DNA of 29,237 nt from Clostridiaceae bacterium (GCA_012799825.1 JAAZKK010000050.1:1-29237); one strand, 5' to 3'; shown: positions 7,065 through 25,223, numbered from the stretch's first letter. Translations and numbers: made by a program. The notes: a model not told the origin generated them from the letters alone.

Positions 7065-7490
7065 GAAGGCCGGCATGAGACCGACCTTCGACATAAATAA
7101 AAATATCACAATCGGTCAGAGCGAATCTTGCGGAAAGATCGCTGACCATTTTATCCTCGCGTCTCCCGTGCTGATACGTTGGCTAGCCTCAATTAGACTA
7201 CGTCGGCAGATCTCAGACAAAAGTCTCAGTACATCCCTCTGAGCAGATCGCGCTTAATCGCGTTGGTCGACTTTGACTAGAGCGAGCATGAAAGGTCACT
7301 GACCCTTTCATCCCTGCGTTCTCCGTGCTGATCAGGCTTAAACGCGTTAGCCTGCTTTGATCAGAGTAAGCCGGGCAGATCGCGAGAAAATTCTCCGTAC
7401 GTCACCCAAGGCTGGTCAGGCATGAACGCGTTGACCGACTTTGATTTGATCAGAGCGAGTCGGGCAGGTCGCGGGAAAATTTTTCTGCGA
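7065..7490 (-). repeat. 84-bp-period degenerate repeat array plus hairpins, overlapping and following the 3' end of the tryptophanase-family gene
   Basis: Cores at 7177 (CGTTGGCTAGCC), 7261 (CGTTGGTCGACTTTGA), 7345 (CGTTAGCCTGCTTTGATCAGAG) and 7429 (CGTTGACCGACTTTGATTTGATCAGAG), exactly 84 bp apart. Confidence 0.8.
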
Positions 7491-8895
7491 GTCTCTCCTG
7501 CCAGTCGGACAGGGGGGCGAGTTTCCCGAGGAAAAAACGCAGGATTTTCGGTTCGTGCTCGAAGCGCAGGCCGCCGATCAAATCGCGGTTTTCAAAGAGC
7601 CACGTCACGCGGTCGATCGCGTAGTCGATCTGGCTCAGGGTGAAAACGCGGCGCGGCATCGCAAGCCGCAGGAGCTCCATCTCAGCGATCTTCTCATTCC
7701 CGTCATCATCTCTATTTTCGCTTAGTGTACCGCGCTCCATCCCCCGGATACCACCGGCAATGTAGAGAGCCGCGGCAAGTGCTGCTGCGGGATACTGTTC
7801 TTGAGGAATATGCGGAACGAAACGTGAGGCGTCGAGATGACAGCCAAGTCCGCCCGCCGGCGTCACGACCGGAATGCCGCGTTTTTCGAGTTCGTCGACC
7901 ATGTAGGCGATAAACTCAGGGCCTTGTGACGTTATGGCAAGATCGAGCGTCTCCTCAAGCCCGACGGCAATCGCCTCAATCTCGCGAACGGACATGCCGC
8001 CATACGTGAGAAATCCTTCGTTCAGCACGATCAGCTCTTTGAGCGGATTGACAAGTTCGCTCTCTCTCATGCAGATGCCGCCACCTCGCGCAAAACCGAG
8101 CTTTCTCGCAGAGAAATAAATGATGTCGCACTCGTCAGCAACAGCACGCATGATTTCTCTAAGCGAGAGATCTTTGCATTCCTCATCCTTGATTTTCAAG
8201 AAATAGAGATTGTCCTGAAGAAGTGACGCGTCCATGACAAGCGGGATATCATGCTTCCGACAAATCGCCGCTGCCTCTTTCAGATTCCCGAAGGAGAACG
8301 GTTGCCCGCCGATCAGGTTTGTCCCCGCTTCGATACGGACAAATGGCACTCGATCATTATTCTCCTCCAAAAACTTTGCTAGCGCTTTCGTGTCAAAATT
8401 GCCTTTGAACGGGTAATCACTTTGACAGTTAAGGCCTTCCGGGATAAGAAATTCGATAACCTCACCGCCACAGCGTTCGATATGTGCTCTTGACGTTGTA
8501 AAGTGATAGTTCATTGGCACAATATCACCCGGCTTCACGAGCAGATCTGCGAGAACCTTTTCACAGCCGCGACCTTGGTGGGCAGGCAAAAAGTGTTCCA
8601 TTCCGAAGATGTCTTGGACTGTTTTCTCGAGCCGGAAAAAGGACTCGCTGCCGGCGTAGGCGTCGTCTGCCCTCATCATCGCTGACTGCTGGCGATCGCT
8701 CATCGCGTTGACGCCGCTATCGGTCAACATGTCGAGAAAAATATCCTTATTGTGTAAAAGATAGAGATTGCTCGATGCTTCCTTTAGACGGGCGAGCCGT
8801 TCCTCAACCGGCAGCAGATTCAACTGCTGTACAATGCGCACCTTATGGCGCTCGAGCGGGATTTTCCTGCCGTCAAAAAAAGAGATGGTTTCCAT
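7450..8895 (-). CDS. Tryptophanase / tyrosine phenol-lyase family beta-eliminating lyase (PLP-dependent)
   Basis: METISFFDGRKIPLERHKVRIV...LLTDSGVNAMSDRQQSAMMRADDAYAGSESFFRLE...LPAHQGRGCEKVL...NLIGGQPFSFGNLKEA...DIPLVMDASLLQDNLYF...IIYFSARKLGFARGGG...EGFLTYGGM...ELLRLAMPRRVFT. Start ATG at 8895 has AAGGAGG upstream; the tracked start at 9066 lies inside the leader. Confidence 0.9.
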   Translation of the reverse strand: METISFFDGRKIPLERHKVRIVQQLNLLPVEERLARLKEASSNLYLLHNKDIFLDMLTDSGVNAMSDRQQSAMMRADDAYAGSESFFRLEKTVQDIFGMEHFLPAHQGRGCEKVLADLLVKPGDIVPMNYHFTTSRAHIERCGGEVIEFLIPEGLNCQSDYPFKGNFDTKALAKFLEENNDRVPFVRIEAGTNLIGGQPFSFGNLKEAAAICRKHDIPLVMDASLLQDNLYFLKIKDEECKDLSLREIMRAVADECDIIYFSARKLGFARGGGICMRESELVNPLKELIVLNEGFLTYGGMSVREIEAIAVGLEETLDLAITSQGPEFIAYMVDELEKRGIPVVTPAGGLGCHLDASRFVPHIPQEQYPAAALAAALYIAGGIRGMERGTLSENRDDDGNEKIAEMELLRLAMPRRVFTLSQIDYAIDRVTWLFENRDLIGGLRFEHEPKILRFFLGKLAPLSDWQERLAEKFSRDLPDSL

Positions 8896-8988
8896 GCGTT
8901 CGTTCCTCCTTAGCTTTTTTCGATGCCATCGCGGCATCTCGCATGATCCGGCACTCATCGAGCCGGTGATCCGGGGGACGAAATGGAA

Positions 8989-9027
8989 TAAAAAACGTCC
9001 GCCCGACATTTTTTGTCGAGAGGACGT
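8989..9027 (-). terminator. Intrinsic terminator of the T-box leader
   Basis: Minus strand: ACGTCC-TCTCGACAAAAAATGTCGGGC-GGACGT-TTTTTA; nested GAC/GTC stem and a T-tract. Confidence 0.9.
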
Positions 9028-9049
9028 CTGCTGACGTGATACCACCTCT
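9019..9049 (-). promoter_or_regulatory. T-box antiterminator
   Basis: Minus strand: AGAGG-TGGTATC-ACGTC-AGCA-GACGT-CCTCT. Two perfect 5-bp helices flank the diagnostic 7-nt UGGNAcc-type bulge (9038-9044), and the 3' half is shared with the terminator stem. Confidence 0.88.
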
Positions 9050-9617
9050 CTTCGCTTCCACCTCACGGTGAAAACCTCTGCCGGTACGCCGATTCCTCAC
9101 TGCGAAGACAAAGTGGCCGTCTTCACAAAATCGGTTATACCGCCGCGCTGTCACGGGCGCACCCGTCGCCTCCTACCTCCGATCATACGGTCTCAGGACG
9201 CTGCTCGCGGAATGTATTCATCTCACCGTCTGCTTTTTGCCTCGCACCACCCGGCATATCTCTGGAAGCTTTCAATGGGATTACTTGTTTCCGGTCATGG
9301 CATTTATGTTGTTTACTGTACCACAGGAATAGATCTTTGGCTAGACACAAAATGAATGATTTTTTCAAAAACGTCCAGATAGTCCAGATAGTTGAGAATA
9401 ATTCAGCTGAATACTTTCTGAAAACAAAAGAATATACGCAAAAGTGACAACAGAAGCTTAGATATAAAGACATGTTGTTACTTTGCTCTATTCATAAACC
9501 AACACTAGTACTCATTCCGTTACGGACATGACCAGATGAAATGAAGGAACTACAAGGAAAAGCATCTTTAGTCCTATCAGTTTTAGCTCTGACCTGACGG
9601 AACGAGTTAACCTCACA

Positions 9618-9773
9618 ATGATGAGTATGGACATATACGATAACCTCATCAACAAACAGGAGCTCTATCGTTTGCTCAACGAAGCCGAAGACAATTTCAA
9701 ATCAGGTAATGAGATGAGCTCCCGTGAGTCACTTCAAAAATTGCGCAAGGGTTTAAACGACAGAACAACGTAA
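9618..9773 (+). CDS. Small ORF (51 aa), possible remnant of an antitoxin C-terminus
   Basis: MMSMDIYDNLINKQELYRLLNEAEDNFKSGNEMSSRESLQKLRKGLNDRTT; helical, resembles Phd/YefM-type C-terminal tails. No clear RBS or toxin partner. Confidence 0.25.
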   Translation: MMSMDIYDNLINKQELYRLLNEAEDNFKSGNEMSSRESLQKLRKGLNDRTT

Positions 9774-10138
9774 TTCTGTCAAAGCCAAAGATACCATCAA
9801 AGTATTAAAGTGTTCATCAGCTGCCCAGTCATGACTTGAAAACTTCAAAAATAGCGATTAAATTTCTTGATGCGGTAGAAAAGACGGATCAGGGATTAAA
9901 GGTGATACCTTTACCGCTTTGAACTGGTGAAAGTTGAGATAATATAGCAACGGGAATATTAAAAATACTCTATTAGCAATTATCTCTTTTTGCAATATTT
10001 CTGAAAATGATGTCCATGTTTACTGCACTATCTATAGAAGAATGAACTTGGAGCTTATGTTTTAAAAACTAACACCCCTCTATGTATTGCAAAATTACGG
10101 CCATTTTTCATGCATTTTGTAGGGCACGGCGTCATTAT

Positions 10139-10906
10139 TCACCTGTCGGACAACAACACCTTGTTCTGATGTGTCCCAACAAGCTGTTGTATGTGCCGAT
10201 AGCTCCCCATCTCCCGGTACGCGTCAGGGAGGCCTGCCTTGTCAAGCATTCTCAGGAAGGAGTAAGCATCGTCGTATATGCGGCTATTGCCTTTTGTGAC
10301 GTAGTAATGCCCGTCGTGCGCTCGGTAATCAATCTCGTATATCTCCGAGCCGGGCACCTTGCCAATGCCAAAATCAATGAGTACCAATTGTTTTTTGTCG
10401 TTTATCAGCAGATTAGTAGCGCTGATGTCACAGTGGACGATTTGGAATTGCCGGAAGCATTTGTGTATCTCGATAAATTCGCCGCAGTACCGCTCAAACA
10501 GGTGCTCATCCGTCGGAATTTCAAAGTTGCGCAAATCAGCAAAAAATTGCGTGACTAGCAACGAGGTGTTTGTATCAAACGCCTTATCACTAGTCAATGT
10601 CCTCGGCACAAAGGGCAAATCGCAACTGGTTACATAGTGGTTGACAAAGATTTCGTTCCGAATGGTGCTGTCATTTTGCGCCAGCTTGACAAAACAAGTC
10701 TCCCCACGGTAATTTCCCTTGTAGTATTTGCGGATGGTTCCCTCACTGTCATCACCGATATACCAATTCTCCGTCCGATAAAGCTGTAAATCGGAAAGGC
10801 CATAGTCGGCTAGCTGGCTGATGGTTCGTCTGTGCTGCTCCGTTAGGTATTCATCCATGAACTGCCTGTGACGGCGCGGGTCGGTTGGAATTGGTTGGCT
10901 ACCCAT
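10139..10906 (-). CDS. Protein-kinase-fold phosphotransferase, last gene of the yhf/hyu operon
   Basis: 255 aa; IVHCDISATNLLINDKKQLVLIDFGIGK (HxDxxxxN + DFG), candidate N-lobe Lys in CFVKL. Confidence 0.75.
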   Translation of the reverse strand: MGSQPIPTDPRRHRQFMDEYLTEQHRRTISQLADYGLSDLQLYRTENWYIGDDSEGTIRKYYKGNYRGETCFVKLAQNDSTIRNEIFVNHYVTSCDLPFVPRTLTSDKAFDTNTSLLVTQFFADLRNFEIPTDEHLFERYCGEFIEIHKCFRQFQIVHCDISATNLLINDKKQLVLIDFGIGKVPGSEIYEIDYRAHDGHYYVTKGNSRIYDDAYSFLRMLDKAGLPDAYREMGSYRHIQQLVGTHQNKVLLSDR

Positions 10907-10926
10907 CGCATCCTCCTTGAGTTTTT

Positions 10927-12084
10927 TCAGTTCAATTGGTTACCGTATTTGTCGAAGATGCCTAGCATACGTGGAGCGCCGGTCCTTAGCCCTTCCACCA
11001 CCGCGATGGATGCATTTACTACGAAAAGCTGCGTTCGGAAAGCATACAGCACACCAGTTCCTACTGGTTCTGAGCATTCCAGCTGCGCATAGTAGTCGAT
11101 GTTGCCCGGCTGTACGTTCTCTGCGTTAACCAAATGATAGCCGCTCTCTTGGGCTACAATGGCGCGATGGATCTTAGCACGTCCATAGAAACCGCCGCCG
11201 AATACACAGCTTTTTCCGTTCCACTTGTGGGAAACCTCAGTAACGTATGCCATCGCCATTATTTCAACGCCGGGTGTACTGGTTGCACTTCGGTAGGTGG
11301 TTCCCGTGAATGCGTGCCCTGGCTCCAGATGAGTGACACCACCCCCGGCCGCTAGGGAAAAGGTAGCGCAGTCGTTCCCGCCCGGAGCATTGACCTGCTG
11401 TACCCGACAACCACAGTTCCTGCCTATATCTACCGCCTTACGCAAGGTATGAAAGTTGTGGGTGGGCTCCACCCGCTCGGAATCAAGACCTAACGCAAAA
11501 CAGGGAAAGGCTGTGAAACCCACAAGTTCCACATGTTCAAGCTGCTGAATTTCCTCAATCACCATCGGAAGTTGCTCAAGGCTAACTCCGCCATATTGCT
11601 GTGGATAGATAGTATCACCGACCTCGGTCACGCGTAGCAACAGTTGCTGCCGTCTACCGCTTTTATTCGCGTGACGGGATATTTTTTTTGCATTTTCAAT
11701 ATCCATCACGGTGATCACTTCTGGATCCATAGCTAGAGCCTCGTCCACACACCACTCAGGAATTTGCATGAGGTGTCCCAAATGCCCAATGACGAAGCCC
11801 TGACGGTGTAACGCCCGTGCTTCATCTATGCTCACAGCCACCGCCCGGGGGATACCACACTCAGCAATGGTCTTGCAAACCACAGGAATGCGCCCAATTT
11901 GCTTGGTCATCATGTACAGCTGCAGACCGAAATTATCCGCCGTTTCTTTTATTACAGAAGCGTTGCGCCGGATCGCGTCTAAGTCCAACACATAGGTGTT
12001 GGGAAGAATCCTACCGGTTCTATGAGCATATATCGACCATTCCACAAGGTCTAAATTCTGCTGAAGCAATGCGTCAACAAACAC
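10927..12084 (-). CDS. yhfX-like: YhfX-like PLP-dependent (alanine racemase-type fold) enzyme
   Basis: 385 aa; PNTYVLDLDAIRRNASVIKETADNFGLQLYMMTKQIGRIP...; GTG start with AGGAGG; 3 bp after the yhfS-like stop codon. Confidence 0.8.
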   Translation of the reverse strand: MFVDALLQQNLDLVEWSIYAHRTGRILPNTYVLDLDAIRRNASVIKETADNFGLQLYMMTKQIGRIPVVCKTIAECGIPRAVAVSIDEARALHRQGFVIGHLGHLMQIPEWCVDEALAMDPEVITVMDIENAKKISRHANKSGRRQQLLLRVTEVGDTIYPQQYGGVSLEQLPMVIEEIQQLEHVELVGFTAFPCFALGLDSERVEPTHNFHTLRKAVDIGRNCGCRVQQVNAPGGNDCATFSLAAGGGVTHLEPGHAFTGTTYRSATSTPGVEIMAMAYVTEVSHKWNGKSCVFGGGFYGRAKIHRAIVAQESGYHLVNAENVQPGNIDYYAQLECSEPVGTGVLYAFRTQLFVVNASIAVVEGLRTGAPRMLGIFDKYGNQLN

Positions 12085-12087
12085 GGT

Positions 12088-13251
12088 TCAGTCCTCCTGC
12101 ATTATACTTTTTAGAGCTTCCTTCAAAATCCTCACTACAGTGTCGGCTCCAGCCCGCATAACATTAATGCGAATGTAATAGTTTAGACGCTCGGGGTTCT
12201 CAACGGCGAATGTTCTGGAAACCGTATAAAACAGCGCAGGGATCTCGTATTTCGATTCCGCCCCCACCGGACGGGGAGACGCACCCAGTTTTTCCGCCTG
12301 AGAAAGAACTCTGTAGGCAATGGGCTGTTCAAACTCAACCAAAAGTACTCGGGACTGCATATTGGCAACAAATACCCGACGAATGCCCCAAATCTTTTTG
12401 TCAGCAAGTTTTTGGATATCTACTCGCGCCTGCTCGGTTTGCATTGCCTGCACTGCCATGGCAACCGGTACGTTCACGAGACTTCGCAAGGCCTCCATGG
12501 CCTCCATTCCCTGCACCTGTGAGCCACCGGTACAGTTGCGTCGGCGAATGCGTTGCAGCAACTCGCGCTTGCCCAGCACACAACCAATACCTTCAGGTCC
12601 CTGCAGCTTGAAGAGCGAAAAAGCTGCAAGGTCCGCCCCTGCGGCAATGCCACACAACGGGGTTTTCAGCACAGCGTAGTTGTCGTCCACCACAACCTGA
12701 CACCCACAGCCTTTCAACGTCGCAATCACATCGCGAAGAGAATAGCTGTCGGTGAGCAACTGTCTTGCGTGTTGAACAACCGCTACGCTGGGCTTCTGCA
12801 AGGTAACAACGCTACGGGTTTCCTCCAGATCGTTGTAGTTCGCATTTACAACTCGCAGGGCCATGTCACGCAGGGTGATCTCGGTGGAAGGGTAGATAGG
12901 CGCAGCGTGCACCAGCACACTGCCACCCGGCTGTGCTACCGCCCCAAGAGCCTCACGAATGGCTCCGGTTCCAGCACCACGAACCAAAACGCAGTCCTGC
13001 GCGCCAAAAAATTGCGCCAGCGTCTGTTCTGCAAGGGTCGTGTGCAGGGGGCTACCGCCCTGCACAAGACCAAGATCACCCTGTTGCAAAAAAAGGCCGT
13101 TAGGGAAGTTCCTGTGTATACAATCCACCAATTTGAATTGCAGTTCCATTGCTTGCTCGATCGAAAGGGCATCCAACATTCCTGCTGTTGGCATCTCATC
13201 ACCTCGCATCCTCTGGCTATTTGGTTGTTTTGCGGGACACGCCTCGCTCAT
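12088..13251 (-). CDS. yhfS-like: YhfS-like PLP-dependent aminotransferase-fold enzyme
   Basis: SLFKLQGPEGIGCVLGKRE Lys region, ADLAAF, DNYAVLKTP; start either ATG 13251 (ATGA overlap with hyuA stop) or ATG 13194 with GAGGTG upstream. Confidence 0.8.
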   Translation of the reverse strand: MSEACPAKQPNSQRMRGDEMPTAGMLDALSIEQAMELQFKLVDCIHRNFPNGLFLQQGDLGLVQGGSPLHTTLAEQTLAQFFGAQDCVLVRGAGTGAIREALGAVAQPGGSVLVHAAPIYPSTEITLRDMALRVVNANYNDLEETRSVVTLQKPSVAVVQHARQLLTDSYSLRDVIATLKGCGCQVVVDDNYAVLKTPLCGIAAGADLAAFSLFKLQGPEGIGCVLGKRELLQRIRRRNCTGGSQVQGMEAMEALRSLVNVPVAMAVQAMQTEQARVDIQKLADKKIWGIRRVFVANMQSRVLLVEFEQPIAYRVLSQAEKLGASPRPVGAESKYEIPALFYTVSRTFAVENPERLNYYIRINVMRAGADTVVRILKEALKSIMQED

Positions 13252-15296
13252 TCCCAAGTGATGATGAGGTTTCCGCCTTTTTCGCAGTAAAATCTGTCAC
13301 CAGGCCCCACAAAAATTGTGGTGTCCATCTGCTCGATAATGACCGGACCTATTCCCGAATACCCCTGAGGAAGATCATCTCGTCGGAAAACTGGAACCTG
13401 TTGGAAGCCCGTCTCCCGGAAGTAGACCGACCGCTCGGTTGCCGGTTTTGGAACAGCCGCCCCGCCAACTTCAAAGAAGCCTATGTCGCCCGATTTATCC
13501 AGTATACCGAAGCCAGAGCAGCGGATACTGACCAACTCCAGTGGTTCGTCGTTCGAAGCAGCATACCCATAGGACGCTTGATGCAGGACATGGAATTTCT
13601 CGGCTATGACGTCCCACCCATCGCCCGCAATATCCTCCGGATCGATCTCCATGGTCAGCTCGTGAGTCTGAGCCATGTAGCGAAGGTCAGCGTAAATGGT
13701 AAACCGCCGGTGATCCGAGTCAAAATCTGCTCGAGCCAGGTCTTCACTCGCCTTTGTTAGTAGGACATGATAGCGCTTACGTAGCTGGGCAGGTGCGAGT
13801 TCAGATAGTGGCAGAATCACGCTCTCCACGTAATCGTATCGCACGTCGCTCATCAAAAGGCCGATAGCGGCCGTGATGCCGGGGTAGCGGGGAACAATGA
13901 CCTTAGTCATATTCAGTGTTTTAGCAACAGCAACTGCCTGTAACGGACCCGCGCCTCCGCAGGCAAACAGGGCAAACTCCCTGATGTCGAATCCACGGTT
14001 AGCGACCAAACGACGCACGGCGTTGGCAATATTCTCGTTTACGATGTCCAACATGCCCTGAGCCGCCTCGTACACATCCATGCTGAGAGGCTCCGCTATC
14101 TTTTTGGCAATCGCATCGTGGCTCAAGGCAACATTGATGGGGAAGCTACCACCCAAAAGTGCCGTTTGGTTCAGCCGCCCCAGCAACACGTTGGCGTCGG
14201 TAAGTGCCGGTTCCTCACCGCCCTGATTGTAGCACACCGGCCCCGGCATGGCTCCAGCGCTGGTGGGGCCCATGTTCAGCATGCCGCCCCGGTCTATCCA
14301 TGCCAGAGTGCCGCCACCCGCTCCAATGGTAGCCACGTCGATGATGGGTAAATGCACCACGGTGCCAAATTCGATCTCCTGCTCGTCGCGGGTCATTAAT
14401 TCACCGTTATACACTATGGCAATGTCGGTGCTGGTGCCGCCGCTGTCGATAGAAATCACCGACCGCTCGTCAAGCTGCTTCGAAATGCCCTTCATGGCAA
14501 TGGCCGCTGCAGCTGGTCCCGAGAGCAGGGTGCGCGGAGCAATATGCTCCACCGGGTATACTGGCGCCACCCCACCATTGGACAGCATCAAAAGAATATC
14601 ATTTTGATACCCCTTTTCTCGGCTATCCCGACTCAGAATATCGATATAATCCTTCAAAAGGGGTCCCACATAGGCAGCCACGCTCACGGTGCTCATGCGT
14701 TCAAATTCACGCCATTCACGTAACAGCTCGCTTGATGTGGTAACGTACAGATGAGGATATGCCTCACGGATGATGGCTGCCGCCTGTTCCTCGTGGGAGG
14801 GGTTGATGTAGGAGTTGATGAAGCAGATGGCCACAGCTTCAATCCCCTCGCTTGTCATCCCTTCCACCAGACTGAGCAATTCACTCTTATCCACTGAGCG
14901 AATCACATTTCCCATACTGTCGATCCGTTCGTCTAACTCTAGGCGGTAGCGGCGCTCTACCAGCTCATCCGGCTGATCCCATTGTAGATCATATAGCCGA
15001 CCACGAGTGGTGCGACGGATCTTTAAAACATCCCGAAAGCCCCTCGTGGTAATCAAAGCAACTTTCGATCCCTTCTTTTCGATAACGGCGTTTGTGGCTA
15101 TGGTTGTGCCGTGCATAAACAGATCCACAGCGGACAGGTCGTATCCACTTTGGGCAATGGCATTCATTACCCCTTCGCGCAGGTTGTGCGGAGTGCTGTG
15201 CACCTTTTTTACAATGGTTTTTCCGGTGACTGGATCTAGAAAAATCCCGTCGGTAAAGGTTCCGCCAACATCAATTCCTATGTTTGTAGTTTTCAT
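13248..15296 (-). CDS. hyuA-like: Hydantoinase/oxoprolinase family protein, HyuA-type subunit (N-methylhydantoinase A-like)
   Basis: 682 aa; NIGIDVGGTFTDGIFLD, MHGTTIATNAVIEKKG, SIDSGGTSTDIAIV, FACGGAGPLQAVAVAKTL. Confidence 0.93.
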   Translation of the reverse strand: MKTTNIGIDVGGTFTDGIFLDPVTGKTIVKKVHSTPHNLREGVMNAIAQSGYDLSAVDLFMHGTTIATNAVIEKKGSKVALITTRGFRDVLKIRRTTRGRLYDLQWDQPDELVERRYRLELDERIDSMGNVIRSVDKSELLSLVEGMTSEGIEAVAICFINSYINPSHEEQAAAIIREAYPHLYVTTSSELLREWREFERMSTVSVAAYVGPLLKDYIDILSRDSREKGYQNDILLMLSNGGVAPVYPVEHIAPRTLLSGPAAAAIAMKGISKQLDERSVISIDSGGTSTDIAIVYNGELMTRDEQEIEFGTVVHLPIIDVATIGAGGGTLAWIDRGGMLNMGPTSAGAMPGPVCYNQGGEEPALTDANVLLGRLNQTALLGGSFPINVALSHDAIAKKIAEPLSMDVYEAAQGMLDIVNENIANAVRRLVANRGFDIREFALFACGGAGPLQAVAVAKTLNMTKVIVPRYPGITAAIGLLMSDVRYDYVESVILPLSELAPAQLRKRYHVLLTKASEDLARADFDSDHRRFTIYADLRYMAQTHELTMEIDPEDIAGDGWDVIAEKFHVLHQASYGYAASNDEPLELVSIRCSGFGILDKSGDIGFFEVGGAAVPKPATERSVYFRETGFQQVPVFRRDDLPQGYSGIGPVIIEQMDTTIFVGPGDRFYCEKGGNLIITWE

Positions 15297-17026
15297 TCGG
15301 CAGCCTCCCTCATCTCCGCCCGCAGCCGGTCGCTAGCGGCGGTATCCACTTTGTCCTGATCGTCGATGACAATACCATATTCTTGATACAAGTGCTCGCT
15401 TGAGAGAAGCCCGTGCAAGAAATCCTTTTCCGCGAGGGCGTAGTCTCGCTCCAGCGGATCACCGTAGCCGCCGCCGCCTGCAACCAAGACGGTCACCTCG
15501 TCGCCCTCTTTCACTAGGTAGTTGCTGGCTTTCAGGGTAAGGTTCACCTCACGTTCGGTTCCCATGTTTAGTACCAGTCCTTGGGGCATTGCCGGCTTGC
15601 CACCAAACAGACCCCAAGGAGGAAATTTCTCCCTGTCACCGAGGGCGCTCAGTTTTGCGGTGCCTCGAGCTATCACAAAGCGCTTGATAGAGCCGTTGCC
15701 ACCCCGAAAGCGGCCAGGGCCACCCGAGTCCTGTCGTAGCGACCACTGGTTGAACAGTATGGGGTACTTGCGCTCAAACACCTCCACGGGGGTGATGCGA
15801 GCACCGCCCCCAAACAGTGACACAAGGCCAGAAGAGCCGTCCTTGGTGGCACGCCCGCCAAAGCCACCTTCGCTGAAAAGATACATCACATAGTATTCGC
15901 CGGTCTTGTCGTCCACACCTCCCATAACTAAGTTGATCAGCCCGTGGGGGCACCCGGTGGACTTTTCTGGGCAGGCATGGGCCAGCGCGCCCAATGAGAC
16001 GCCGATTACTTTCTCGTACACCGTGCCCGCCATGGCGCTAATGGCCGCGGGAGGTCGTGCGTTCACCACCGTTCCCTCGGGGATGATGAAGGAAATGGGC
16101 AGAAAACAGCCGTAGCTCATGGGAACATCGGGAAACAGCGACTTTATTGTGACGATGACTGCCGATACCGTGGAGGAATATGTGCCGTTAGCGGCGCTGC
16201 GTGTCTGTGGGTCAGAGCCTGAAAAATCAAATTCCATGCGATTTCCCTTCACCGTCATCTTCACGGCAATTTTCACCGGGTCTTTGCAATACTTACTTTC
16301 CTCGTCCATATACTCTTCAAAGAAATAGCTACCGTCTGGAATTTTATCAATCTCCTTTTCCAGCATCACCTTGGCGTACTCAATGGTTTCTTCCATAAAC
16401 TCTAGGATGTTTTCCACACCGTACTTATCCGCCAACTCGATGACCCGGCGCTCGCCAATGGCTACCGAGGATATCTGGGAGGAGAGGTCTCCCTCTCGCT
16501 CCCAAGGAATGCGCACGTTTGACATGATGATATCGTGGACACCCTTGGCCATTACGCCACGCTCCATAATCTTCACTGGCGGTATGCGGAGACCTTCTTC
16601 AAAGTGCTCTTCAGCAACAGAGTTCAGGCTACCAGGTGTAGAACCTCCCACGTCAGCCCAGTGCCCAGCAATGGCCACAAATCCAATGCGCTTGCCCTTG
16701 TAAAACACTGGCTTGATGACCCCTACATCGTTGAAATGGGTGCCGCCAATAAAGGGGTCATTGTTGATAAACACATCGCCTTCAAACAAGTTTCCTTCGT
16801 AGACTTCCACGATTTTTCGCACGGAATATTGCATCATAGTAACGAATACCCCTAGGTCAGATTCTCCCTGAACGATCAAATTGCCGTTACCATTGAATAA
16901 GGCAGCACCTATATCCCGTCCTTCTGTAATGACCGCGGAATAAGCCGAGCGAAACATGTTGATATTCATTTCATCTGCAATACTTTTAAAGGCGCTTTGC
17001 AAAACCGAAAAAGTAATGGTATCCAT
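15293..17026 (-). CDS. hyuB-like: Hydantoinase B/oxoprolinase family protein, HyuB-type subunit
   Basis: MDTITFSVLQSAFKSIADEMNINMFRSAYSAVITEGRDIGAALF...NNDPFIGGTHFNDVGVIKPVF...RRDSGGPGRFRGGNGS-type motif; ATG 17026 with GGAGGAC upstream; ATGA overlap with hyuA. Confidence 0.93.
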   Translation of the reverse strand: MDTITFSVLQSAFKSIADEMNINMFRSAYSAVITEGRDIGAALFNGNGNLIVQGESDLGVFVTMMQYSVRKIVEVYEGNLFEGDVFINNDPFIGGTHFNDVGVIKPVFYKGKRIGFVAIAGHWADVGGSTPGSLNSVAEEHFEEGLRIPPVKIMERGVMAKGVHDIIMSNVRIPWEREGDLSSQISSVAIGERRVIELADKYGVENILEFMEETIEYAKVMLEKEIDKIPDGSYFFEEYMDEESKYCKDPVKIAVKMTVKGNRMEFDFSGSDPQTRSAANGTYSSTVSAVIVTIKSLFPDVPMSYGCFLPISFIIPEGTVVNARPPAAISAMAGTVYEKVIGVSLGALAHACPEKSTGCPHGLINLVMGGVDDKTGEYYVMYLFSEGGFGGRATKDGSSGLVSLFGGGARITPVEVFERKYPILFNQWSLRQDSGGPGRFRGGNGSIKRFVIARGTAKLSALGDREKFPPWGLFGGKPAMPQGLVLNMGTEREVNLTLKASNYLVKEGDEVTVLVAGGGGYGDPLERDYALAEKDFLHGLLSSEHLYQEYGIVIDDQDKVDTAASDRLRAEMREAAE

Positions 17027-17115
17027 AATTGTCCTCCAATGGCTTGTAAGTTGCCACAGTTTGGTTACTGGTTTACCTATACTGATCGCCGTATCAGCAG
17101 AAGGTACCGCCGAGC

Positions 17116-18420
17116 TTAGTTTTTGGCAGGAATTGGCTTCATTACCTTGCTTAGGACGAGGTAAGCCACACCGCCCACAACCAGACTGTTGATGCCCGAA
17201 ACACCGATGGCAGCGTAGGGCAGCACACCCAAGGGATTGCCGGTAAAAAAGTCTGCAACAACCGCGATAATCCATGCTAGTATGGCCGGCCAATGGAAAT
17301 CCCCTATACCTTCAGTCTTTTTTTCAACGCCCCGCCTTACATAGAAATAGTCGATGGCGATAATGATGCCAATAGGCGGCATGAGCATGGCCAGTACTCC
17401 CAGATAGACAGCTAGATTCGTATACACGCCGGTAGCGCACACAATTGTTCCGATGAGCACCGTGACGATGGTGAAGATGTATTTTGGCATTTTGAACAGT
17501 TTAGAAAGAGCTAACCCGGCGGAATAGACGTTGTTGTCAGCAGAGGACCAAGTGGAAAACAGCAGAAGCAGAAAGCCGATGACGGTGAATAGTTTGCCTC
17601 CCATAGTCACGATGAGAGTCACCAGATCGGGGCTTCCGGTGCCCTTCACCGCAATGGCACCTAGAGAAACAAAGATGAAGAATCCGAGACCGAAAGAGAG
17701 CAACGAGGCTCTTGCAGCGCTTTTTCCAGTCTTGTCATAACGAGTCACATCTCCTGCCAGCGTGGCGCCGGCGATAAAAATACCGATGGTGGTGGTAACG
17801 CCCGTACCAAAGGTGATTGGAGCAGTTGTGGGGCCAATTTGGTTGATAGCAGTCCAACCGCCGCCGGCGATGATACCCTTGATAGCAGCAATCAGAACGA
17901 GTAGACACATGGGAACAACGATGAAGTTGCTGAGTGCAGCAACGCCCCTAAAGCCCAAAAAGGCGGAGGTGCCCATGAGTAGGCTAGCTATGATGCCACC
18001 TGACACGGTCAGTGAGCCGCTTGCCATCCCAAACAAAGCCTCTAGACTAGGGATGAAAAACCCAACGGTTACACCGTAAAACAGTATGTTGGCAATTGCC
18101 ATGGCAGCTGCCACGATGTTGGAACCCCTTTCGCCAAACGCGATTCTCGCAACCATAGATGTGGACAAGCCCTCCTTGGCGCCAATCATTGCCAGCGGCA
18201 TGGAGTAGACACCCAAAATCACGGCGCCTACAAAGATGGCCAGCAGAGCCATGGGCAGGGTCATGCCGGTGGCAATGTTGCCTCCTGTGATGGCAGGAGC
18301 AGGGTTTATGACCCAGCACAACAGCACGGAGATGATGGTGAACATACTTTTTCGTTCGCTTTGTGGTACTACGGACAGTTCGTTATCTTGCAAAACGCTC
18401 TTGCTTTTACTCTTGTTCAT
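17116..18420 (-). CDS. NCS1-family (CodB/cytosine permease-like) transporter
   Basis: 434 aa, about 12 hydrophobic segments; WVINPAPAITGGNIATGM, YSAGLALSKLFKMPKY, GIIIAIDYFYVRRG; RBS GGAGG. Confidence 0.85.
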   Translation of the reverse strand: MNKSKSKSVLQDNELSVVPQSERKSMFTIISVLLCWVINPAPAITGGNIATGMTLPMALLAIFVGAVILGVYSMPLAMIGAKEGLSTSMVARIAFGERGSNIVAAAMAIANILFYGVTVGFFIPSLEALFGMASGSLTVSGGIIASLLMGTSAFLGFRGVAALSNFIVVPMCLLVLIAAIKGIIAGGGWTAINQIGPTTAPITFGTGVTTTIGIFIAGATLAGDVTRYDKTGKSAARASLLSFGLGFFIFVSLGAIAVKGTGSPDLVTLIVTMGGKLFTVIGFLLLLFSTWSSADNNVYSAGLALSKLFKMPKYIFTIVTVLIGTIVCATGVYTNLAVYLGVLAMLMPPIGIIIAIDYFYVRRGVEKKTEGIGDFHWPAILAWIIAVVADFFTGNPLGVLPYAAIGVSGINSLVVGGVAYLVLSKVMKPIPAKN

Positions 18421-18587
18421 GATACTTACCTCCTCATTTTCTTTTACTATGGTGTATCATTGTGTATCCCGCAGGTGTCCTCACTCGACAGAAGTGTGTC
18501 CTGTCTTTTTAGTGGGGAGTTTCACACAAACGGGAAACTTCCAACCGGATTTATCCGCCTCCACAGAACACTGCGCAGCGGGTGCCT

Positions 18588-19811
18588 TTATACCGGAAAA
18601 GCCGGCAGGGCAAGTAGCTCTAAAAAGCTAGTGCCGTTTTCTGGCGAAGCGGCACCGAAGTAAGCGGTGGCGGTTGCCCCTATGTCAGAAAGGGTCTCAC
18701 ACACACCAATGTTCAAGGGTCCACCCTGATGAGAATGGATCATCAAAGGCACCATTTCCCGAGTGTGGTGCGGATGGCCAATGGCGGGATCGTTCCCATG
18801 ATCCGCCATCACCACCAAGATATCGTCACCGCTCAATTCCCCTACAATGTCCGCAATGCCCGCGTCGGCAACCTCGAGTATGCTGGCAAATAACATCGCG
18901 TCCTCCTGGTGGCCACTCAAATCAGTTTCCTGCACATTGACGCAAAAAAAGCCAGATTTCTCTTTTCGTAAAAGCGCTAGGGTCTCCTTTAGAACGGCTC
19001 TTGTGTCCACCATAGATACACTGGTTCCGTAGGCATTGCTCACCACATCTGCCACCTTACCAAGCAGGTACACCGGTACGTCCATCTTCCCTAGAATAGT
19101 AGGCACCTGCACCTCCGCATTCACTCCGTAACCCAAATGTACGCAATGGTAATCGCTTCGGTATACGCCTGAGGCGGGAGCGTTGACTCCGATATAAGCT
19201 CCATATTCTTCTATGGCGGCCAACATGTCCGGTAGATGCACCCCTCGTCCTCCGAAAACGATTACTCGTGAAATGGTGCTAACCTCACGCACAAGCCGCC
19301 CAACCTCCACTGCCCACTCAAATGAAATGTCGTCGAGGGCAACCGTGACATTGAACGCCAAGCCAGGATCACACTCGATATTGTCGGCAATAGTAATACA
19401 CTCCTCTACAATCAGTAGCCGCTCTTGATCGCCCTGATACACACGGGTATTCCATCCGTTTTTGGTTAGAGTATCGTTTATTGTGTCCAGTTTGTTCTTG
19501 ATCGGTTCCATGACAGGTTTTTTTGGCAAGGTGCCCATGATCTCCTGATGGCCGAAGAAGGTATCCGCGCCGTCGTGCATAAGCTTTGCCCTTCCCCACA
19601 CCGCCGTTTTGCTGTACAGGATAGAATTCGTCTCAAATCCGCTGGCATTGGCAAGACCCAACCGCGACAAGGTGGGCAACTCAAGAGAAGGCACCGCTTT
19701 TACTATGTGCGCAAAGGTATTAGCGCCATGGTCTTGCGGACGCACAGAAGACACGTCAGGCATCTCCCCGATGCCAAAACCATCCAAGACAATAACAATG
19801 AATCTTCCCAT
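18588..19811 (-). CDS. yhfW-like: YhfW-like phosphopentomutase-family (alkaline phosphatase superfamily) protein
   Basis: MGRFIVIVLDGFGIGEMPDVSSVRPQDHGANTFAHI...DGADTFFGHQEIMGT...VVMADHGNDPAIGHPHHTREMVPLMI; ATG at 19811. Confidence 0.88.
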   Translation of the reverse strand: MGRFIVIVLDGFGIGEMPDVSSVRPQDHGANTFAHIVKAVPSLELPTLSRLGLANASGFETNSILYSKTAVWGRAKLMHDGADTFFGHQEIMGTLPKKPVMEPIKNKLDTINDTLTKNGWNTRVYQGDQERLLIVEECITIADNIECDPGLAFNVTVALDDISFEWAVEVGRLVREVSTISRVIVFGGRGVHLPDMLAAIEEYGAYIGVNAPASGVYRSDYHCVHLGYGVNAEVQVPTILGKMDVPVYLLGKVADVVSNAYGTSVSMVDTRAVLKETLALLRKEKSGFFCVNVQETDLSGHQEDAMLFASILEVADAGIADIVGELSGDDILVVMADHGNDPAIGHPHHTREMVPLMIHSHQGGPLNIGVCETLSDIGATATAYFGAASPENGTSFLELLALPAFPV

Positions 19812-19875
19812 TTTGCGCCTTTCTGCTTGGGATGGTGTTAACAACTAACTTATATACAGAATTTTGTACTATTTG

Positions 19876-20001
19876 CTATATCATATCACGTGTTTTACCC
19901 TGCGTCAATGCACGATACATATGAATTATTTGTTTATAAATTGTGCATTTTCCATAATTATTCGGAATCATTATTGCTCTTTTCTCTGCGTGATGATATA
20001 G
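19876..20001. promoter_or_regulatory. Candidate operator pair in the divergent yhfW-yhfZ intergenic region
   Basis: CTATATCATATCACG (19876-19890) and its near reverse complement CGTGATGATATAG (19989-20001). Confidence 0.4.
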
Positions 20002-20060
20002 TTCTATTGATATATATATTACTCTGTATATTTAAATTGTTGCATAAGGAGGACATTGTT

Positions 20061-20987
20061 ATGAGTTCGGCCAACACCATGTTCCGACAAAAAGTGGGCA
20101 TCGCTGCACAGCAAATTGCCGCTCAAATCATCCCGCTGGACGTGGGAAACCGGGTTCCGACAGTTTCGGATTGGACCCTGCAGTTAGGCGTTGCGCGAGG
20201 TACGATCCAGACGGCAATCCAATATTTGAGAGATTCTGGTGCTGTCAAACTACAGTTCAGGGGGAAAAAGGGTTCCTATATTGTACAGATGGATCGTATG
20301 AAACTTACTGAAATAGCAGGCTTACACGGTTTGATTGGGGTTATGCCGCTTCCGTATTCTAAAAAATACGAGGGGCTAGCAACGGGAATTTATAATGTAT
20401 TAAACGATGCCGGGCTGAACACCAACCTAGCTTTTATGCGTGGATCCGATAACCGCCTGCGCACACTTATGCAAGAGCGGTGCGATTTTGCGGTGATGTC
20501 AGAGCTAACCGCTGAGTACTACATAAAAATGGGTTATCAGGTTGCGGTAGTGCTGAACCTAGGCAATTTTTCCTATGTGGACAAGCACGTGGTGTTGGTA
20601 AGAAAGGACTTTAAAGGCCATTTCAACGGTTTAAAGGTAGGTGTTGACAACTCCTCCATCGATCAGAAAATGATGACGGCCTCCTTTTTTGAAAGATACA
20701 ACGTAACCTACGTCCCGCTCATTTACAGCGATATCATTGCCAGTCTTCGAAGTAGAAAAATAGACGCCGCTGTATGGAATTTTGACAATATTAATTTCTC
20801 GGAAAACGAACTCTCCTATTTGCCGATCAGCCAGAATGAGTTGCAAATTGCCGACACTCGTGCAGTGATTCTATGTCGCCAGGCTGATACACTGGTGTGT
20901 TCCCTTCTGGGAAAAAACGTAAACGCCCAAAGCATCTTAGAATATCAGCGCGACGTTCTCGTAGGCAGAATGACTCCGCGCTACTGA
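20061..20987 (+). CDS. yhfZ-like: YhfZ-like GntR-type transcriptional regulator, divergent from the operon
   Basis: MSSANTMFRQKVGIAAQQIAAQIIPLDVGNRVPTVSDWTLQLGVARGTIQTAIQYLRDSGAVKLQFRGKKGSYI winged-HTH, then a periplasmic-binding-like domain; RBS AAGGAGG; ATG 20061 rather than tracked start 19890. Confidence 0.8.
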   Translation: MSSANTMFRQKVGIAAQQIAAQIIPLDVGNRVPTVSDWTLQLGVARGTIQTAIQYLRDSGAVKLQFRGKKGSYIVQMDRMKLTEIAGLHGLIGVMPLPYSKKYEGLATGIYNVLNDAGLNTNLAFMRGSDNRLRTLMQERCDFAVMSELTAEYYIKMGYQVAVVLNLGNFSYVDKHVVLVRKDFKGHFNGLKVGVDNSSIDQKMMTASFFERYNVTYVPLIYSDIIASLRSRKIDAAVWNFDNINFSENELSYLPISQNELQIADTRAVILCRQADTLVCSLLGKNVNAQSILEYQRDVLVGRMTPRY

Positions 20988-21119
20988 GACGAGGCCGGTG
21001 TAAAAAACTGTACTTGTGCTAAGAGTGACATCTTATCCGCAATTTGAAACATCTTCGGGTACAAAGAAATAGACCGAATTGTATGACTGTGATCTAGTTT
21101 TGAAAAAGAAAAGAGCCGT

Positions 21120-21559
21120 CTCAAAAAGTGAAGCAGTCATTAGTCTGTCTATACCGGATAATCGCTGGGTCAAGTTGACGAACCTTATTTCTCGGCCCTT
21201 TGTAGAAATGAAGTACCGGAAGAATTTTCGCGGTAATCGTGGATAGCAAGCTCATTGCGCATCACAGACATCCATCTTGCGGCCAGGCACGGCTTTAATA
21301 TATTGTGTATTCACAAGCATGGCGCGCACGTTCATCACTTCCAAGATGTTGTAGATGGGCTTCTAATATGAACCCGTACTCTCCATTGCCACCATCTGAA
21401 TCTTTCGTTTCAATAACCATTCGCAAAGCACAATCAGATCTCCGGTCATCGTCCCAAATGTCCATATCTCTTGTCGATTCTTCTCGTCTAAACAGCAGGA
21501 AACGATCTTTGCTTAGCGAATATCCATCCCACAACAACGCTCATATACAACTTTCATAG
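21120..21559 (-). pseudogene. Degenerate IS110-family transposase remnant
   Basis: One minus-strand frame reads CCGMDIR*AKIVSCCLDEKNRQEIWTFGTMTGDLIVLCEWLLKRKIQMVAMESTGSY*KPIYNILEVMNVRAMLVNTQYIKAVPGRKMDVCDAQ*ACYPRLPRKFFRYFISTKGREIRFVNLTQR: IS110 motifs (VAMESTGxYWKP, LVNxxxIKAVPGRKxDVxDAxW) interrupted by stops. Confidence 0.85.
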
Positions 21560-22228
21560 AATCCTCCCATAGAGCGCGGCATCTCATATCCCTTGATCTA
21601 TTACGCGTGCTCGGCTAGGCCGGCAACAATGTGTGGTGCAAATAAGATGCCAAACCAGACTACATAACAGGCTTGGAGCACTATTGTGACCTCGATCTTT
21701 GTCTGCTAAGAAAATTCTACGCTAAAATCGCCGCAACAACCCGGTTATGTAGCGCATGGCGAGGAATAGGACACGACGCCTCATGGAGGACTACATGTTG
21801 TCTTTGCTATCTGTCCAATGTATCAGTGTTTTAATTCTTTCTCTGTTATTAACGCCTCAAAGTCCTTCTAAGAGCCTTCTTTTCCGATTTAGGTCAATGT
21901 CGCTGAAATAAATTCTACTTTTCCAAAATTGGTCATGATCCCAGGATAACCTCCGCATAATCGTCAAAACCATGGTATCATTCGTGTATTCCACACCGTT
22001 ATAAAAGACTCTAATCATATTGTCGGGGAAGAATTTTCATGGCAAGAATAGAGCGTAAGAATCGCATCTTCCCCACTCCGCTTTCAAGATCATCTTTTGT
22101 TAATTTTAGGAGCCTATTTCTTTACTGAATAGCTGCTTAATAGGGTAGGTAAGCGTAAAATGCAAACCACTGTTAACAATTCTGGATAAATATAAATTAG
22201 AAGAAAAATAGGATGAGAATCGTGGGTT

Positions 22229-22879
22229 TCAAACAACTGCTTCGTCAAAAACACCGTCTGATACGAGACGTGATCGATCACACCGTGTCAAAGTGTCTTG
22301 GAGTACCAATGTGTCGTGCTCGCGCGCAATCTTTTCATAAAAATCAGACGCTTCCAGTGACAGAATACAGCCGCAGTATTTTTGGCGATAGAGCCCTATT
22401 TCTTTTGCCATCTGCTGGCCGCGACGGTAACCGTTACGCCAATCGCATGGAACAAACTCGATCGAGTACGGCTCACATGCGCGCCTGCCTTCCTCAATCA
22501 AAACATCGCGATTTTGCCACGGACTGACGAGTAACGTCGTGCTGACGTATTTGATGCCTAGTCTGTGCGCTACTTTTGCCAGGTGCTCAAGACGAACACG
22601 ATAACAAAAACGGCACCGCCCAGCACCGTCATTTGCGCGTTCTCGCCAAGCACTCGGCACACAAAGTGGATTGACGATCAACGGAATTTCGTAATATGCA
22701 GCCGCCTTGCTGGCGTTTTCCATACGGCGGCGCCATTCCATATTTGGATGAATATTGGGGTTAAAGAATAGCAATGTTACGTCGACGCCGGCATGGAGAA
22801 GCGTGTCGAGCGGCCACATTGAGCACGGACCGCAACATTGATGAAGCAGCCATTTCTGACCTTTATACTCCTCGTTCAT
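22229..22879 (-). CDS. queH: Epoxyqueuosine reductase QueH (DUF208)
   Basis: LLHQCCGPCSMW, FFNPNIHP, GRCRFCYRVRLEHLAKVA, TTLLVSPWQN, YRQKYCGCILS. Confidence 0.93.
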   Translation of the reverse strand: MNEEYKGQKWLLHQCCGPCSMWPLDTLLHAGVDVTLLFFNPNIHPNMEWRRRMENASKAAAYYEIPLIVNPLCVPSAWRERANDGAGRCRFCYRVRLEHLAKVAHRLGIKYVSTTLLVSPWQNRDVLIEEGRRACEPYSIEFVPCDWRNGYRRGQQMAKEIGLYRQKYCGCILSLEASDFYEKIAREHDTLVLQDTLTRCDRSRLVSDGVFDEAVV

Positions 22880-22885
22880 ATGAAC

Positions 22886-23150
22886 CCCTGTCCATCGTAT
22901 AGATCATTGATTGTGATTTGCGCGTCTGGCAAAACACAGGAATCGTCTCGTATTGTGAACGGCTACATAGCAAGCTCGTTATTTTGGCCTTTGCACACCC
23001 CGGAGAACTGTCGCGTCTTATGAACGGCCACACAGCAAACTCGTTTTTGGCTACTGCACTCCGCGTTCACATGTCACCCTGACCATCTATTAGATCGTTG
23101 AGCGTGATTTGCGCATCAGAAACTCCGCGGGAATTGTCGCGTGTCTTGTA
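22886..23150. repeat. Degenerate duplication of the ruvB 3' end between ruvB and queH
   Basis: CCTGTCCATCGTATAGATCATTGATTGTGATTTGCGCGTC (from 22887) versus CCTGACCATCTATTAGATCGTTGAGCGTGATTTGCGCATC (from 23078); trailing unit ATCGTCTCGTATTGTGAACGGCTACATAGCAAGCTCG repeated as ACTGTCGCGTCTTATGAACGGCCACACAGCAAACTCG. Confidence 0.8.
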
Positions 23151-24185: not shown

Positions 24186-24275
24186 ACCTACCTCGCCGTC
24201 GTTGAGCTTCTTTCACCAAAGCGCATTATCTGCCTATGTCATCTTATCAGATCCTGTCTTTGTGAGGTTACAGGA

Positions 24276-25200: not shown

Positions 25201-25223
25201 GTCAAAGCGAAAGCCCAACTGTG

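Follow-up and report, generated by a model that had tools for sequence, protein, structure and literature searches.

A conserved variant of the yhf operon in which an NCS1-HyuB-HyuA cassette and a protein-kinase-like kinase probably replace Php and the YhfT/YhfU module

The window analysed here is a metagenome-assembled stretch of 29,237 nt from a Clostridia genome labelled Clostridiaceae bacterium (GCA_012799825.1, JAAZKK010000050.1), with coordinates counted from its first letter; a close RuvB carries the label Saccharofermentanales. Between positions 10139 and 20987, it carries a yhf-type locus consisting of a seven-gene operon on the minus strand (10139-19811) and a divergent YhfZ-like regulator on the plus strand. 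We consider it probable that this is a catabolic operon with a swapped front end, in which an NCS1 permease, the HyuA/HyuB pair and a kinase replace YhfT/YhfU-dependent uptake and the hydrolase Php, ahead of the same YhfW/YhfS/YhfX core. We class the locus not as a new kind of system but as a rare, conserved form of the widespread yhf system, whose operons are found in Escherichia coli, Yersinia, Vibrio, Bacillus, Clostridia and Streptomyces.

Results

A yhf core behind a different front end

As listed from its open reading frames (ORFs) and by family scans, the operon is transcribed in the order yhfW-like, NCS1, hyuB, hyuA, yhfS-like, yhfX-like and kinase-fold gene. A first-pass annotation made from the sequence alone had given this same list, with this order, the shared minus strand and a divergent YhfZ-like regulator; all eight genes are indeed in place and their families hold. 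The yhfW-like gene (18588-19811, 407 aa) comes first and is separated by a spacer of 167 nt (18421-18587), with no detected RNA family or terminator, from the gene for the NCS1 permease (17116-18420, 434 aa). After 89 nt follows hyuB (15293-17026, 577 aa), which starts at ATG 17026 behind a GGAGGA ribosome-binding site and shares a 4-nt ATGA overlap with hyuA (13248-15296, 682 aa). The yhfS-like gene (12088-13194, 368 aa) ends 3 nt before the GTG start of the yhfX-like gene (10927-12084, 385 aa), and the kinase gene (10139-10906, 255 aa) closes the operon after a gap of 20 nt, all these gaps being read from the sequence. Facing the operon, the regulator gene (20061-20987, plus strand) encodes 308 aa from ATG 20061. 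Long ORFs overstate three of the genes, whose real starts are at 17026 (hyuB), 19811 (yhfW) and 20061 (yhfZ, the ORF of which extends to 19890).

As for the junctions, the hyuB/hyuA overlap and the 3-nt gap between yhfS and yhfX are as first described, while a second overlap that had been proposed, between hyuA and yhfS, is probably not real. An ATGA is present there with an ATG at 13251, from which yhfS would overlap hyuA. We prefer the start at ATG 13194, which leaves a gap of 53 nt, because it has a GAGGTGA ribosome-binding site, yields a protein of 368 aa like its homologues (367-378 aa) and lies flush with E. coli YhfS. The 249-nt control region between the divergent genes (19812-20060) holds a sigma-70-like promoter candidate pointing into yhfW, TTGACG-17-TG-TATGAT at 19908-19880 (minus strand), which is a consensus match only. 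A terminator and promoter scan returned counts no higher than in shuffled sequence, this site upstream of yhfW being the only noteworthy one, and an Rfam scan of the whole window found no riboswitch, leader or other family.

Four of the proteins have orthologues in the E. coli K-12 cluster yhfZ-yhfY-yhfX-yhfW-php-yhfU-yhfT-yhfS (b3376-b3383), with identities of 33% for YhfZ, 47% for YhfW, 38% for YhfX and 49% for YhfS. Both systems consist of one regulator and a compact operon, but the regulator is divergent in the window and co-directional in E. coli. The first-pass subfamily names of the window proteins are upheld by family profiles and matches in the Protein Data Bank (PDB). The YhfX-like protein, a pyridoxal 5'-phosphate (PLP) enzyme of fold type III (the alanine-racemase fold), matches PF21279 (93.4 bits, cut-off 27) and PF01168 (57.7 bits, cut-off 24.1) as well as E. 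coli YhfX (PDB 4KBX, 275 bits over residues 1-384), and it holds all invariant columns of a 22-sequence family alignment, K61 included. The YhfS-like protein, a PLP enzyme of fold type I, matches PF22475 (112 bits, cut-off 27), PF00266 (Aminotran_5, 47.9 bits) and E. coli YhfS (PDB 4J8L, 337 bits), its residues 7-364 aligning with residues 6-361 of the latter. Both E. coli structures were deposited as "uncharacterized protein." The YhfW-like protein scores 529 bits with NF009049 (NCBIfam PRK12383, cut-off 254), and its metal and nucleophile motifs of the alkaline-phosphatase superfamily, DG.G, DT..GH.EIMG, D..GH..D, DHGNDP and HTRE align with those of Bacillus cereus phosphopentomutase; from these motifs, it is predicted to be a metal-dependent phosphomutase of the phosphopentomutase type. 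The regulator matches NF041241 with 344 bits (cut-off 260) and combines an HTH_41 domain with a YhfZ_C ligand-binding domain (PF14503, 220 bits).

The source record annotates the permease and the kinase as hypothetical proteins only. The permease scores 75.5 bits with PF02133 (cut-off 23.5) and is therefore a member of the NCS1 superfamily; since it stays below the CodB equivalog NF008241 (216 bits, cut-off 326), it is CodB-like and not a cytosine permease equivalog. HyuA, the subunit with the ATP-binding ASKHA fold, comprises three hydantoinase A domains (PF05378, PF01968 and PF19278) and presents the motifs DVGGTFTD, DSGGT and GAMPGP, which match the three motifs described for the ATP site of caprolactamase and related enzymes (PMC8453981). 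HyuB, the metal-binding subunit, matches PF02538 with 561 bits, and its residues D38, H97, D100 and H122 align with the metal tetrad D41, H99, D102 and H124 of CapB, on each of which the activity of that enzyme depends, as seen by mutagenesis (PMC8453981). The best solved relatives are the fused N-methylhydantoinase 7hk5 (452 bits for HyuA, 312 bits for HyuB) and the caprolactamase 6yra (394 bits for chain 6yra_A, 254 bits for 6yra_B), but the caprolactamase equivalogs NF050156/NF050157 are missed by a wide margin, with 522 bits for HyuA and 304 bits for HyuB against a cut-off of 1000. HyuA/HyuB thus belong to the ATP-dependent hydantoinase/oxoprolinase/lactamase superfamily, with intact ATP-site motifs and metal-site residues. 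CapAB (6YRA), N-methylhydantoinase (7HK5) and OplAB resemble the window pair in their two-subunit architecture and B-then-A gene order, and likewise have the motifs DxGGTxTD, DxGGT and GxxPGP and an Asp-His-Asp-His metal site. Their company is different, however: known lactamases and hydantoinases occur with aminotransferase/dehydrogenase or carbamoylase genes, whereas HyuAB in the window is embedded among two PLP enzymes, a kinase and a mutase.

A minimal kinase with complete catalytic motifs

The 255-aa product of the last gene has only weak matches to Pkinase, RIO1, ABC1 and Bud32, with Pfam Pkinase at 24.1 bits against a cut-off of 31.7. Nevertheless, K74, E85, H158-x-D160-x4-N165 and D178-F-G are invariant in 13 sequences, and a YDDAYSF motif resembling subdomain IX of eukaryotic protein kinases (ePK-like) is also kept. 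In its AlphaFold model, which is confident (pLDDT 92.6, pTM 0.88), a long N-terminal helix precedes the kinase N-lobe, and the C-lobe is short. Foldseek with this model retrieved kinases at a probability of 1.0, generic eukaryotic-type ones only, and the outcome was equally generic when a profile of the family was run against sequences from the PDB. The APE motif is missing and the chain stops about 45 residues past the subdomain-IX-like motif, which places the protein outside the Hanks-type Ser/Thr kinases. Judged by this model, it is a minimal kinase of the protein-kinase-like (PKL) fold with a complete set of catalytic motifs.

The family is small: a word-indexed search of 5.8 billion proteins yielded 11 clusters, and HMMER, run exhaustively over 1.84 billion representatives, found 56 at E<=1e-30. 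Relatives at 31-44% identity sit outside yhf loci. In two of the compared loci or contigs, which are designated by L-numbers, a relative stands directly after a polysaccharide pyruvyl transferase in a polysaccharide-synthesis cluster (L094:4768-10030 and L099:7303-12019), with glycosyltransferases, a flippase and a Wzy polymerase as neighbours, and one representative of the family (P0283) carries a fused FrhB/FdhB-like domain. Except for P0128 (from L115), which branches outside, the operon-associated kinases group in a clade of their own in a neighbour-joining tree, sister to those of the polysaccharide loci. Because of this polysaccharide-locus context, we favor a kinase of small molecules or carbohydrates. 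The L094 relative is followed by genes for a 505-aa protein without any family match, for a nucleotidyl transferase and for a metallophosphoesterase.

Php and HyuAB, and YhfY/U/T and the kinase, have opposite distributions

A scan with a YhfX alignment, covering one genome per species, matched at least 600 stretches, 566 of which encode YhfX relatives. The best 80 loci were fetched with 10-kb flanks and are the basis of all counts out of 80; their ORFs were searched with the window proteins and with reference YhfY, YhfU, YhfT, Php, HPr and Enzyme I. The canonical constituents are found near YhfX in most loci: YhfU and YhfT in 76/80 each, Php and YhfZ in 74/80 each, YhfW in 72/80, YhfS in 66/80 and YhfY in 63/80 (plus 5 divergent). 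NCS1, HyuA and HyuB together occur in a single locus (L011), and the kinase in 0/80. Conversely, Php is missing from all six complete HyuAB loci (the window, L001/L002, L003/L004, L005/L011, L115 and L117), and the kinase is found only where YhfY, YhfU and YhfT are absent. Within the window, tblastn detected no php, yhfT, yhfU or yhfY, nor any pseudogene remnant of php, yhfT or yhfU; where E. coli has these four genes, the window has the NCS1 permease, HyuA/HyuB and the PKL kinase. These opposite patterns directly support the earlier proposal that the php and yhfT positions were taken over by these genes.

The closest relatives of the window YhfX are only 51-56% identical to it, and all are metagenomic. 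At least four further metagenomic lineages have the hybrid gene set; their HyuA is 66-72% identical to that of the window, and their kinase 41%. L001/L002 and L003/L004 have the order YhfZ, NCS1, HyuB, HyuA, YhfS, YhfX, kinase and YhfW, while L115 and L117 carry the same eight genes but end with YhfW followed by the kinase; the window instead starts with yhfW. The yhfW and kinase genes thus occupy three different positions across the hybrids and no gene of the set is lost, which argues for selection on the set rather than recent common descent. Both expectations of the first-pass annotation therefore hold: HyuA/HyuB and NCS1 recur with YhfX and YhfW homologues while no full hybrid has php, yhfT or yhfU, and the set is conserved across other genomes at 41-72% protein identity, which speaks against a chance arrangement.

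Intermediates also exist. In L005/L011, which are one contig of a Clostridia metagenome-assembled genome, and in L116, the NCS1-HyuB-HyuA cassette stands beside YhfY, YhfU and YhfT, without the kinase. Their order is YhfZ, PRD-domain protein, NCS1, HyuB, HyuA, YhfU and YhfT, and L005 continues with YhfS, YhfX, YhfW, HPr and Enzyme I. Php is absent from L005/L011, the only intermediate complete enough to judge. We read this as two successive non-orthologous displacements, of Php by NCS1-HyuB-HyuA and then of YhfY, YhfU and YhfT by the kinase, a two-step replacement for which these surviving intermediates speak.

The canonical clusters themselves include a phosphomutase and a PRD-domain protein but no kinase. 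HPr adjoins four yhf-type clusters (L005:12353-14353, L012, L013 and L035), three of which have Enzyme I too. The PRD protein and these neighbours hint that the YhfT/YhfU module is linked to phosphotransfer dependent on phosphoenolpyruvate (PEP). The E. coli K-12 cluster has the canonical order, and its description as poorly characterised is accurate, as RefSeq labels all eight of its genes putative or uncharacterised, and a literature search on yhf genes, DUF2620 (the YhfU family) and the phosphotriesterase homology protein turned up the names only in gene lists or in unrelated senses, with no function assigned.

Two further features of canonical loci were noticed. A protein of about 363 aa with a weak amidase-signature match is encoded between yhfT and php in 27/80 loci (e.g., L007:6895-7986), and is absent from all hybrids. 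In L007 (12455-14306), and also in L008 and L009, the canonical yhf cluster is immediately followed by genes for a pseudouridine-5'-phosphate glycosidase-like protein (Indigoidine_A) and a PfkB kinase.

The surroundings of relatives point to amino sugars

The nearest outgroup HyuA proteins, with 52-53% identity to that of the window, are encoded in two metagenomic loci, L091 (5074-16658) and L092 (5113-16603). The cluster there comprises a GntR/UTRA regulator, an SIS-domain protein, NCS1, HyuB, HyuA, an AnmK-family kinase (434 bits, cut-off 387), a PIG-L deacetylase, NagB (267 bits, cut-off 237) and NagA (279 bits, cut-off 226). Like the window, these loci have the NCS1-HyuB-HyuA cassette and then a kinase; unlike it, they have AnmK, NagA, NagB and an SIS protein downstream, and a GntR/UTRA regulator instead of YhfZ. 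The NCS1 gene precedes hyuB-hyuA here as it does in all hybrids. Since this hitherto undescribed cluster joins a complete set of genes for anhydro-amino-sugar breakdown to an ATP-dependent lactamase/hydantoinase, it is a candidate route for an amino-sugar lactam, for example anhydro-muramic-delta-lactam. The next HyuA relative (45%, L093) adjoins an SIS protein and a sugar-type ABC transporter.

Accessory genes, sought by clustering those ORFs near the 80 canonical loci that had no assignment, gave a related picture. Most frequent among them is nagB, a bona fide gene for glucosamine-6-phosphate deaminase (TIGR00502, 317 bits, cut-off 237), present in 10/80 loci (L013, L015, L017, L025, L038, L041, L045, L048, L059 and L083). 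In nine of these, nagB follows the last yhf gene, yhfW or yhfX, and has the same direction, the two being immediate neighbours except in L025 (gap of about 0.95 kb); in L048 it is inside the cluster (6809-7546). The 6-phospho-muramidase gene mupG was found in 4/80 loci, in L019 embedded together with a chitobiose-type EIIC component, and a PBP4B-like gene in 5/80, in L075 and L085 straight after yhfX or yhfW. In L041 and L059, a PfkB kinase gene follows nagB.

Taken with the neighbors of the nearest HyuAB and the carbohydrate contexts of the kinase relatives, the accessory genes of canonical yhf loci favor a cyclic amide of the amino-sugar type. Our best guess for the substrate class, drawn from gene content, is a hydroxylated, amino-sugar-derived cyclic amide, the breakdown of which may end in a compound resembling glucosamine-6-phosphate. 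It also suits YhfW, a homologue of sugar-phosphate mutases, and Php, which has relatives among enzymes that hydrolyse phosphorylated sugar lactones. A plain hydantoin, nucleobase or amino-acid lactam is disfavored, because the kinase, the mutase and the nagB linkage would then be left unexplained. Thus, of the uptake and ring-opening pathway suggested by the first-pass annotation, the cyclic amide is retained, but the nucleobase or plain hydantoin gives way to an amino-sugar type, which the context favors.

Discussion

A proposed pathway and its alternatives

The pathway that we propose would run as follows. The divergent YhfZ regulator would repress or induce the operon. The NCS1 permease would import an unphosphorylated cyclic amide, the ring of which HyuA/HyuB would open using ATP, a task that the metallo-hydrolase Php may perform in canonical clusters. 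The PKL kinase would then phosphorylate a hydroxyl of the opened product with ATP; in canonical clusters, the YhfY/YhfU/YhfT module would give the phosphate, possibly in a PEP/HPr-linked manner. YhfW would move the phosphate, and YhfS (lyase- or transferase-like) and YhfX (by its racemase fold) would act on the amine. We infer this order of steps, the substrate and the two equivalences on which the scheme turns, of Php with HyuAB and of YhfY/U/T with the kinase plus NCS1. The hybrid would need a kinase because an NCS1 symporter, unlike YhfT/YhfU-dependent uptake, presumably delivers no phosphorylated compound.

Several observations weigh against this scheme. The kinase-less intermediates L005/L011 carry HyuAB, so that either YhfT/YhfU, HPr and Enzyme I phosphorylate the opened product there or the proposed order of steps is wrong. 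When alignments of YhfT and YhfU were compared with single sequences of UlaA/B/C and GatA/B/C, hhalign gave probabilities below 1%, and with no match to these phosphotransferase system (PTS) components, PEP-dependent phosphorylation in canonical clusters is a guess. The best structural and sequence matches of the kinase are eukaryotic-type protein kinases, which makes a regulatory role possible. Furthermore, nagB adjoins canonical loci only and no hybrid, and we see no convincing chemical role for both PLP enzymes plus the mutase on an amino sugar.

The regulatory role just mentioned would have the kinase control YhfZ or an enzyme, as a substitute for YhfY, the PRD protein that the hybrids have lost. 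Such a role accounts for the appearance of the kinase exactly where that protein disappears, as well as for the Ser/Thr protein kinases among its best fold and profile matches and the retention of the ePK-like YDDAYSF motif. Even so, we regard this as unlikely, since the protein lacks any sensor or docking domain and its C-lobe is truncated, its relatives are encoded among polysaccharide-synthesis genes, near those for pyruvyl transferases and a nucleotidyl transferase (with one FrhB-like fusion), and the hybrid operon keeps a phosphomutase for which the kinase is the only source of a phosphorylated intermediate. A more radical alternative is that two unrelated systems with no common substrate have met, a mobile hydantoin/lactam cassette of NCS1-HyuB-HyuA having landed in a decaying yhf operon. 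The cassette does travel as a unit outside yhf loci (L091, L092), and the L003 hybrid is adjoined by a transposase and an integrase. This is nonetheless hard to reconcile with the retention of the full set by at least five lineages, between which protein identity has fallen to 41-72% and gene order varies without the loss of a gene, with tight spacing (overlaps or 3-89 nt, and 167 nt between yhfW and NCS1) under one promoter-like site, with core enzymes that all keep their catalytic residues, and with the absence of Php in every complete case, and we judge it highly unlikely.

The remaining alternatives concern the chemistry of HyuAB. Lactamase and racemase are a known pairing, as in the process from aminocaprolactam to lysine, and a plain 5-substituted hydantoin, a dihydropyrimidine-like base or a simple amino-acid lactam (ornithine or lysine lactam), with YhfX as racemase, would suit a CodB-like permease and HyuAB relatives of which the best characterised are N-methylhydantoinase and caprolactamase. 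Such a substrate seems doubtful to us: these compounds need neither a kinase nor a phosphomutase, HyuA and HyuB fall far below the caprolactamase equivalog cut-off, and the contexts of the canonical loci, the nearest HyuAB and the kinase relatives are those of amino sugars and carbohydrates, not nucleobases. Least credible of all is that HyuAB is an ATP-dependent carboxylase of the acetone/acetophenone type, a reading that we rejected. Such carboxylases belong to the same superfamily and have ATP and metal sites in common with it (PMC8453981), but they score only 96-283 bits, much under the 254-452 bits of N-methylhydantoinase and caprolactamase, and the operon encodes just two subunits, with no gamma or epsilon subunit gene.

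Within the catabolic operon with a swapped front end that we favor, one concrete substrate deserves mention, although we would give it rather low odds: muramic-delta-lactam from the spore cortex, or its 1,6-anhydro form, as the yhf substrate in E. coli and hybrid forms alike. Muramic-delta-lactam, a stable six-membered lactam, makes up a large share of the muramic residues of the spore cortex. The lactam would be hydrolysed by HyuAB in the window and by Php in canonical clusters, and the kinase or YhfT/YhfU would provide the sugar phosphate. Ring opening would free the 2-amino group, an unusual point of attack, for the PLP enzymes, for example for PLP-dependent removal of the lactyl ether, and the product, glucosamine-6-phosphate, would pass to NagB. 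A search of the literature on muramic-delta-lactam found its synthesis and role in germination covered, with no catabolic route described. Next to the L091-type cluster, a candidate for the anhydro form, the yhf systems could then represent a second route. If the idea is true, yhf is the missing catabolic route for an abundant amino-sugar lactam.

Relation to known systems and significance

The logic proposed for canonical yhf, import with phosphorylation followed by ring hydrolysis, is that of the L-ascorbate Ula system (UlaABC with the UlaG lactonase) and of phospho-sugar lactonases of the phosphotriesterase (PTE) family. The window differs from Ula in having neither a PTS nor a PTE-family enzyme. 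The phospho-sugar lactonases of Mycoplasma are relatives of Php within the PTE family (cog1735). Hydrolysis of pentonolactone 5-phosphates by enzymes from Mycoplasma is cited in PMC10971088. The back end of the pathway has parallels of another kind. A phosphate ester made by a kinase and used by a PLP enzyme links hydroxylysine kinase to phosphohydroxylysine phospho-lyase, and homoserine kinase to threonine synthase. To such kinase and PLP phospho-lyase pairs, the window adds a phosphomutase and a second PLP enzyme, and the likeness is one of logic, no sequence relationship being claimed.

Natural module swaps of this kind act like genetic experiments and constrain the chemistry of yhf. They suggest that the job of Php can be done by an ATP-driven cyclic-amide hydrolase, that the contribution of YhfY, YhfU and YhfT can be replaced by a secondary permease and an ATP-dependent kinase, and that the product is near enough to glucosamine-6-phosphate for nagB to have been recruited repeatedly into the operon. 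The problem of annotating yhf is thereby reduced to a short list of testable substrates. The locus also points to two enzyme groups, a small new family of PKL kinases with carbohydrate-like substrates and, among the HyuAB lactamases, a branch associated with sugars.

Surroundings of the operon in the window

Beyond the kinase gene, a stretch of about 1 kb (9067-10138) holds no sizeable gene. It includes a small ORF at about 9618-9775 (plus strand), the product of which, about 51 aa long (MMSMDIYDNLINKQELYRLLNEAEDNF...), looks like a small antitoxin-type protein. The next gene (7450-9066, minus strand) belongs to the tryptophanase/tyrosine phenol-lyase family (PRK13238, 580 bits); its ORF has about 65 extra N-terminal residues, and its true start is probably internal. 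We considered it as a member of the operon and rejected it, because about 1 kb of non-coding sequence lies between the two and the gene is absent beside every other hybrid.

On the other side, the 1.2 kb between yhfZ and queH (20988-22228) contains no ORF of more than 84 aa and no Rfam match. The housekeeping genes beyond it (22229-28567) are queH, ruvB, ruvA and ruvC, followed by genes for an LCP (LytR-CpsA-Psr) protein and an Ldh_2-family oxidoreductase. Neither these nor the two FMN_red-family flavoproteins encoded at 3014-4443 show linkage to the operon in other genomes. Between the flavoproteins and the tryptophanase-family gene, an XRE-type (HTH_3) protein with a repetitive Glu/Gln/Lys-rich middle and a C-terminal hydrophobic segment is encoded at 4648-5457 (plus strand), and a 254-aa ORF antisense to it is probably a repeat artefact. 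Finally, the gene at 5948-6640 (minus strand) encodes a predicted lipoprotein-like protein with 24 uninterrupted threonines after a Ser/Thr/Pro-rich linker.

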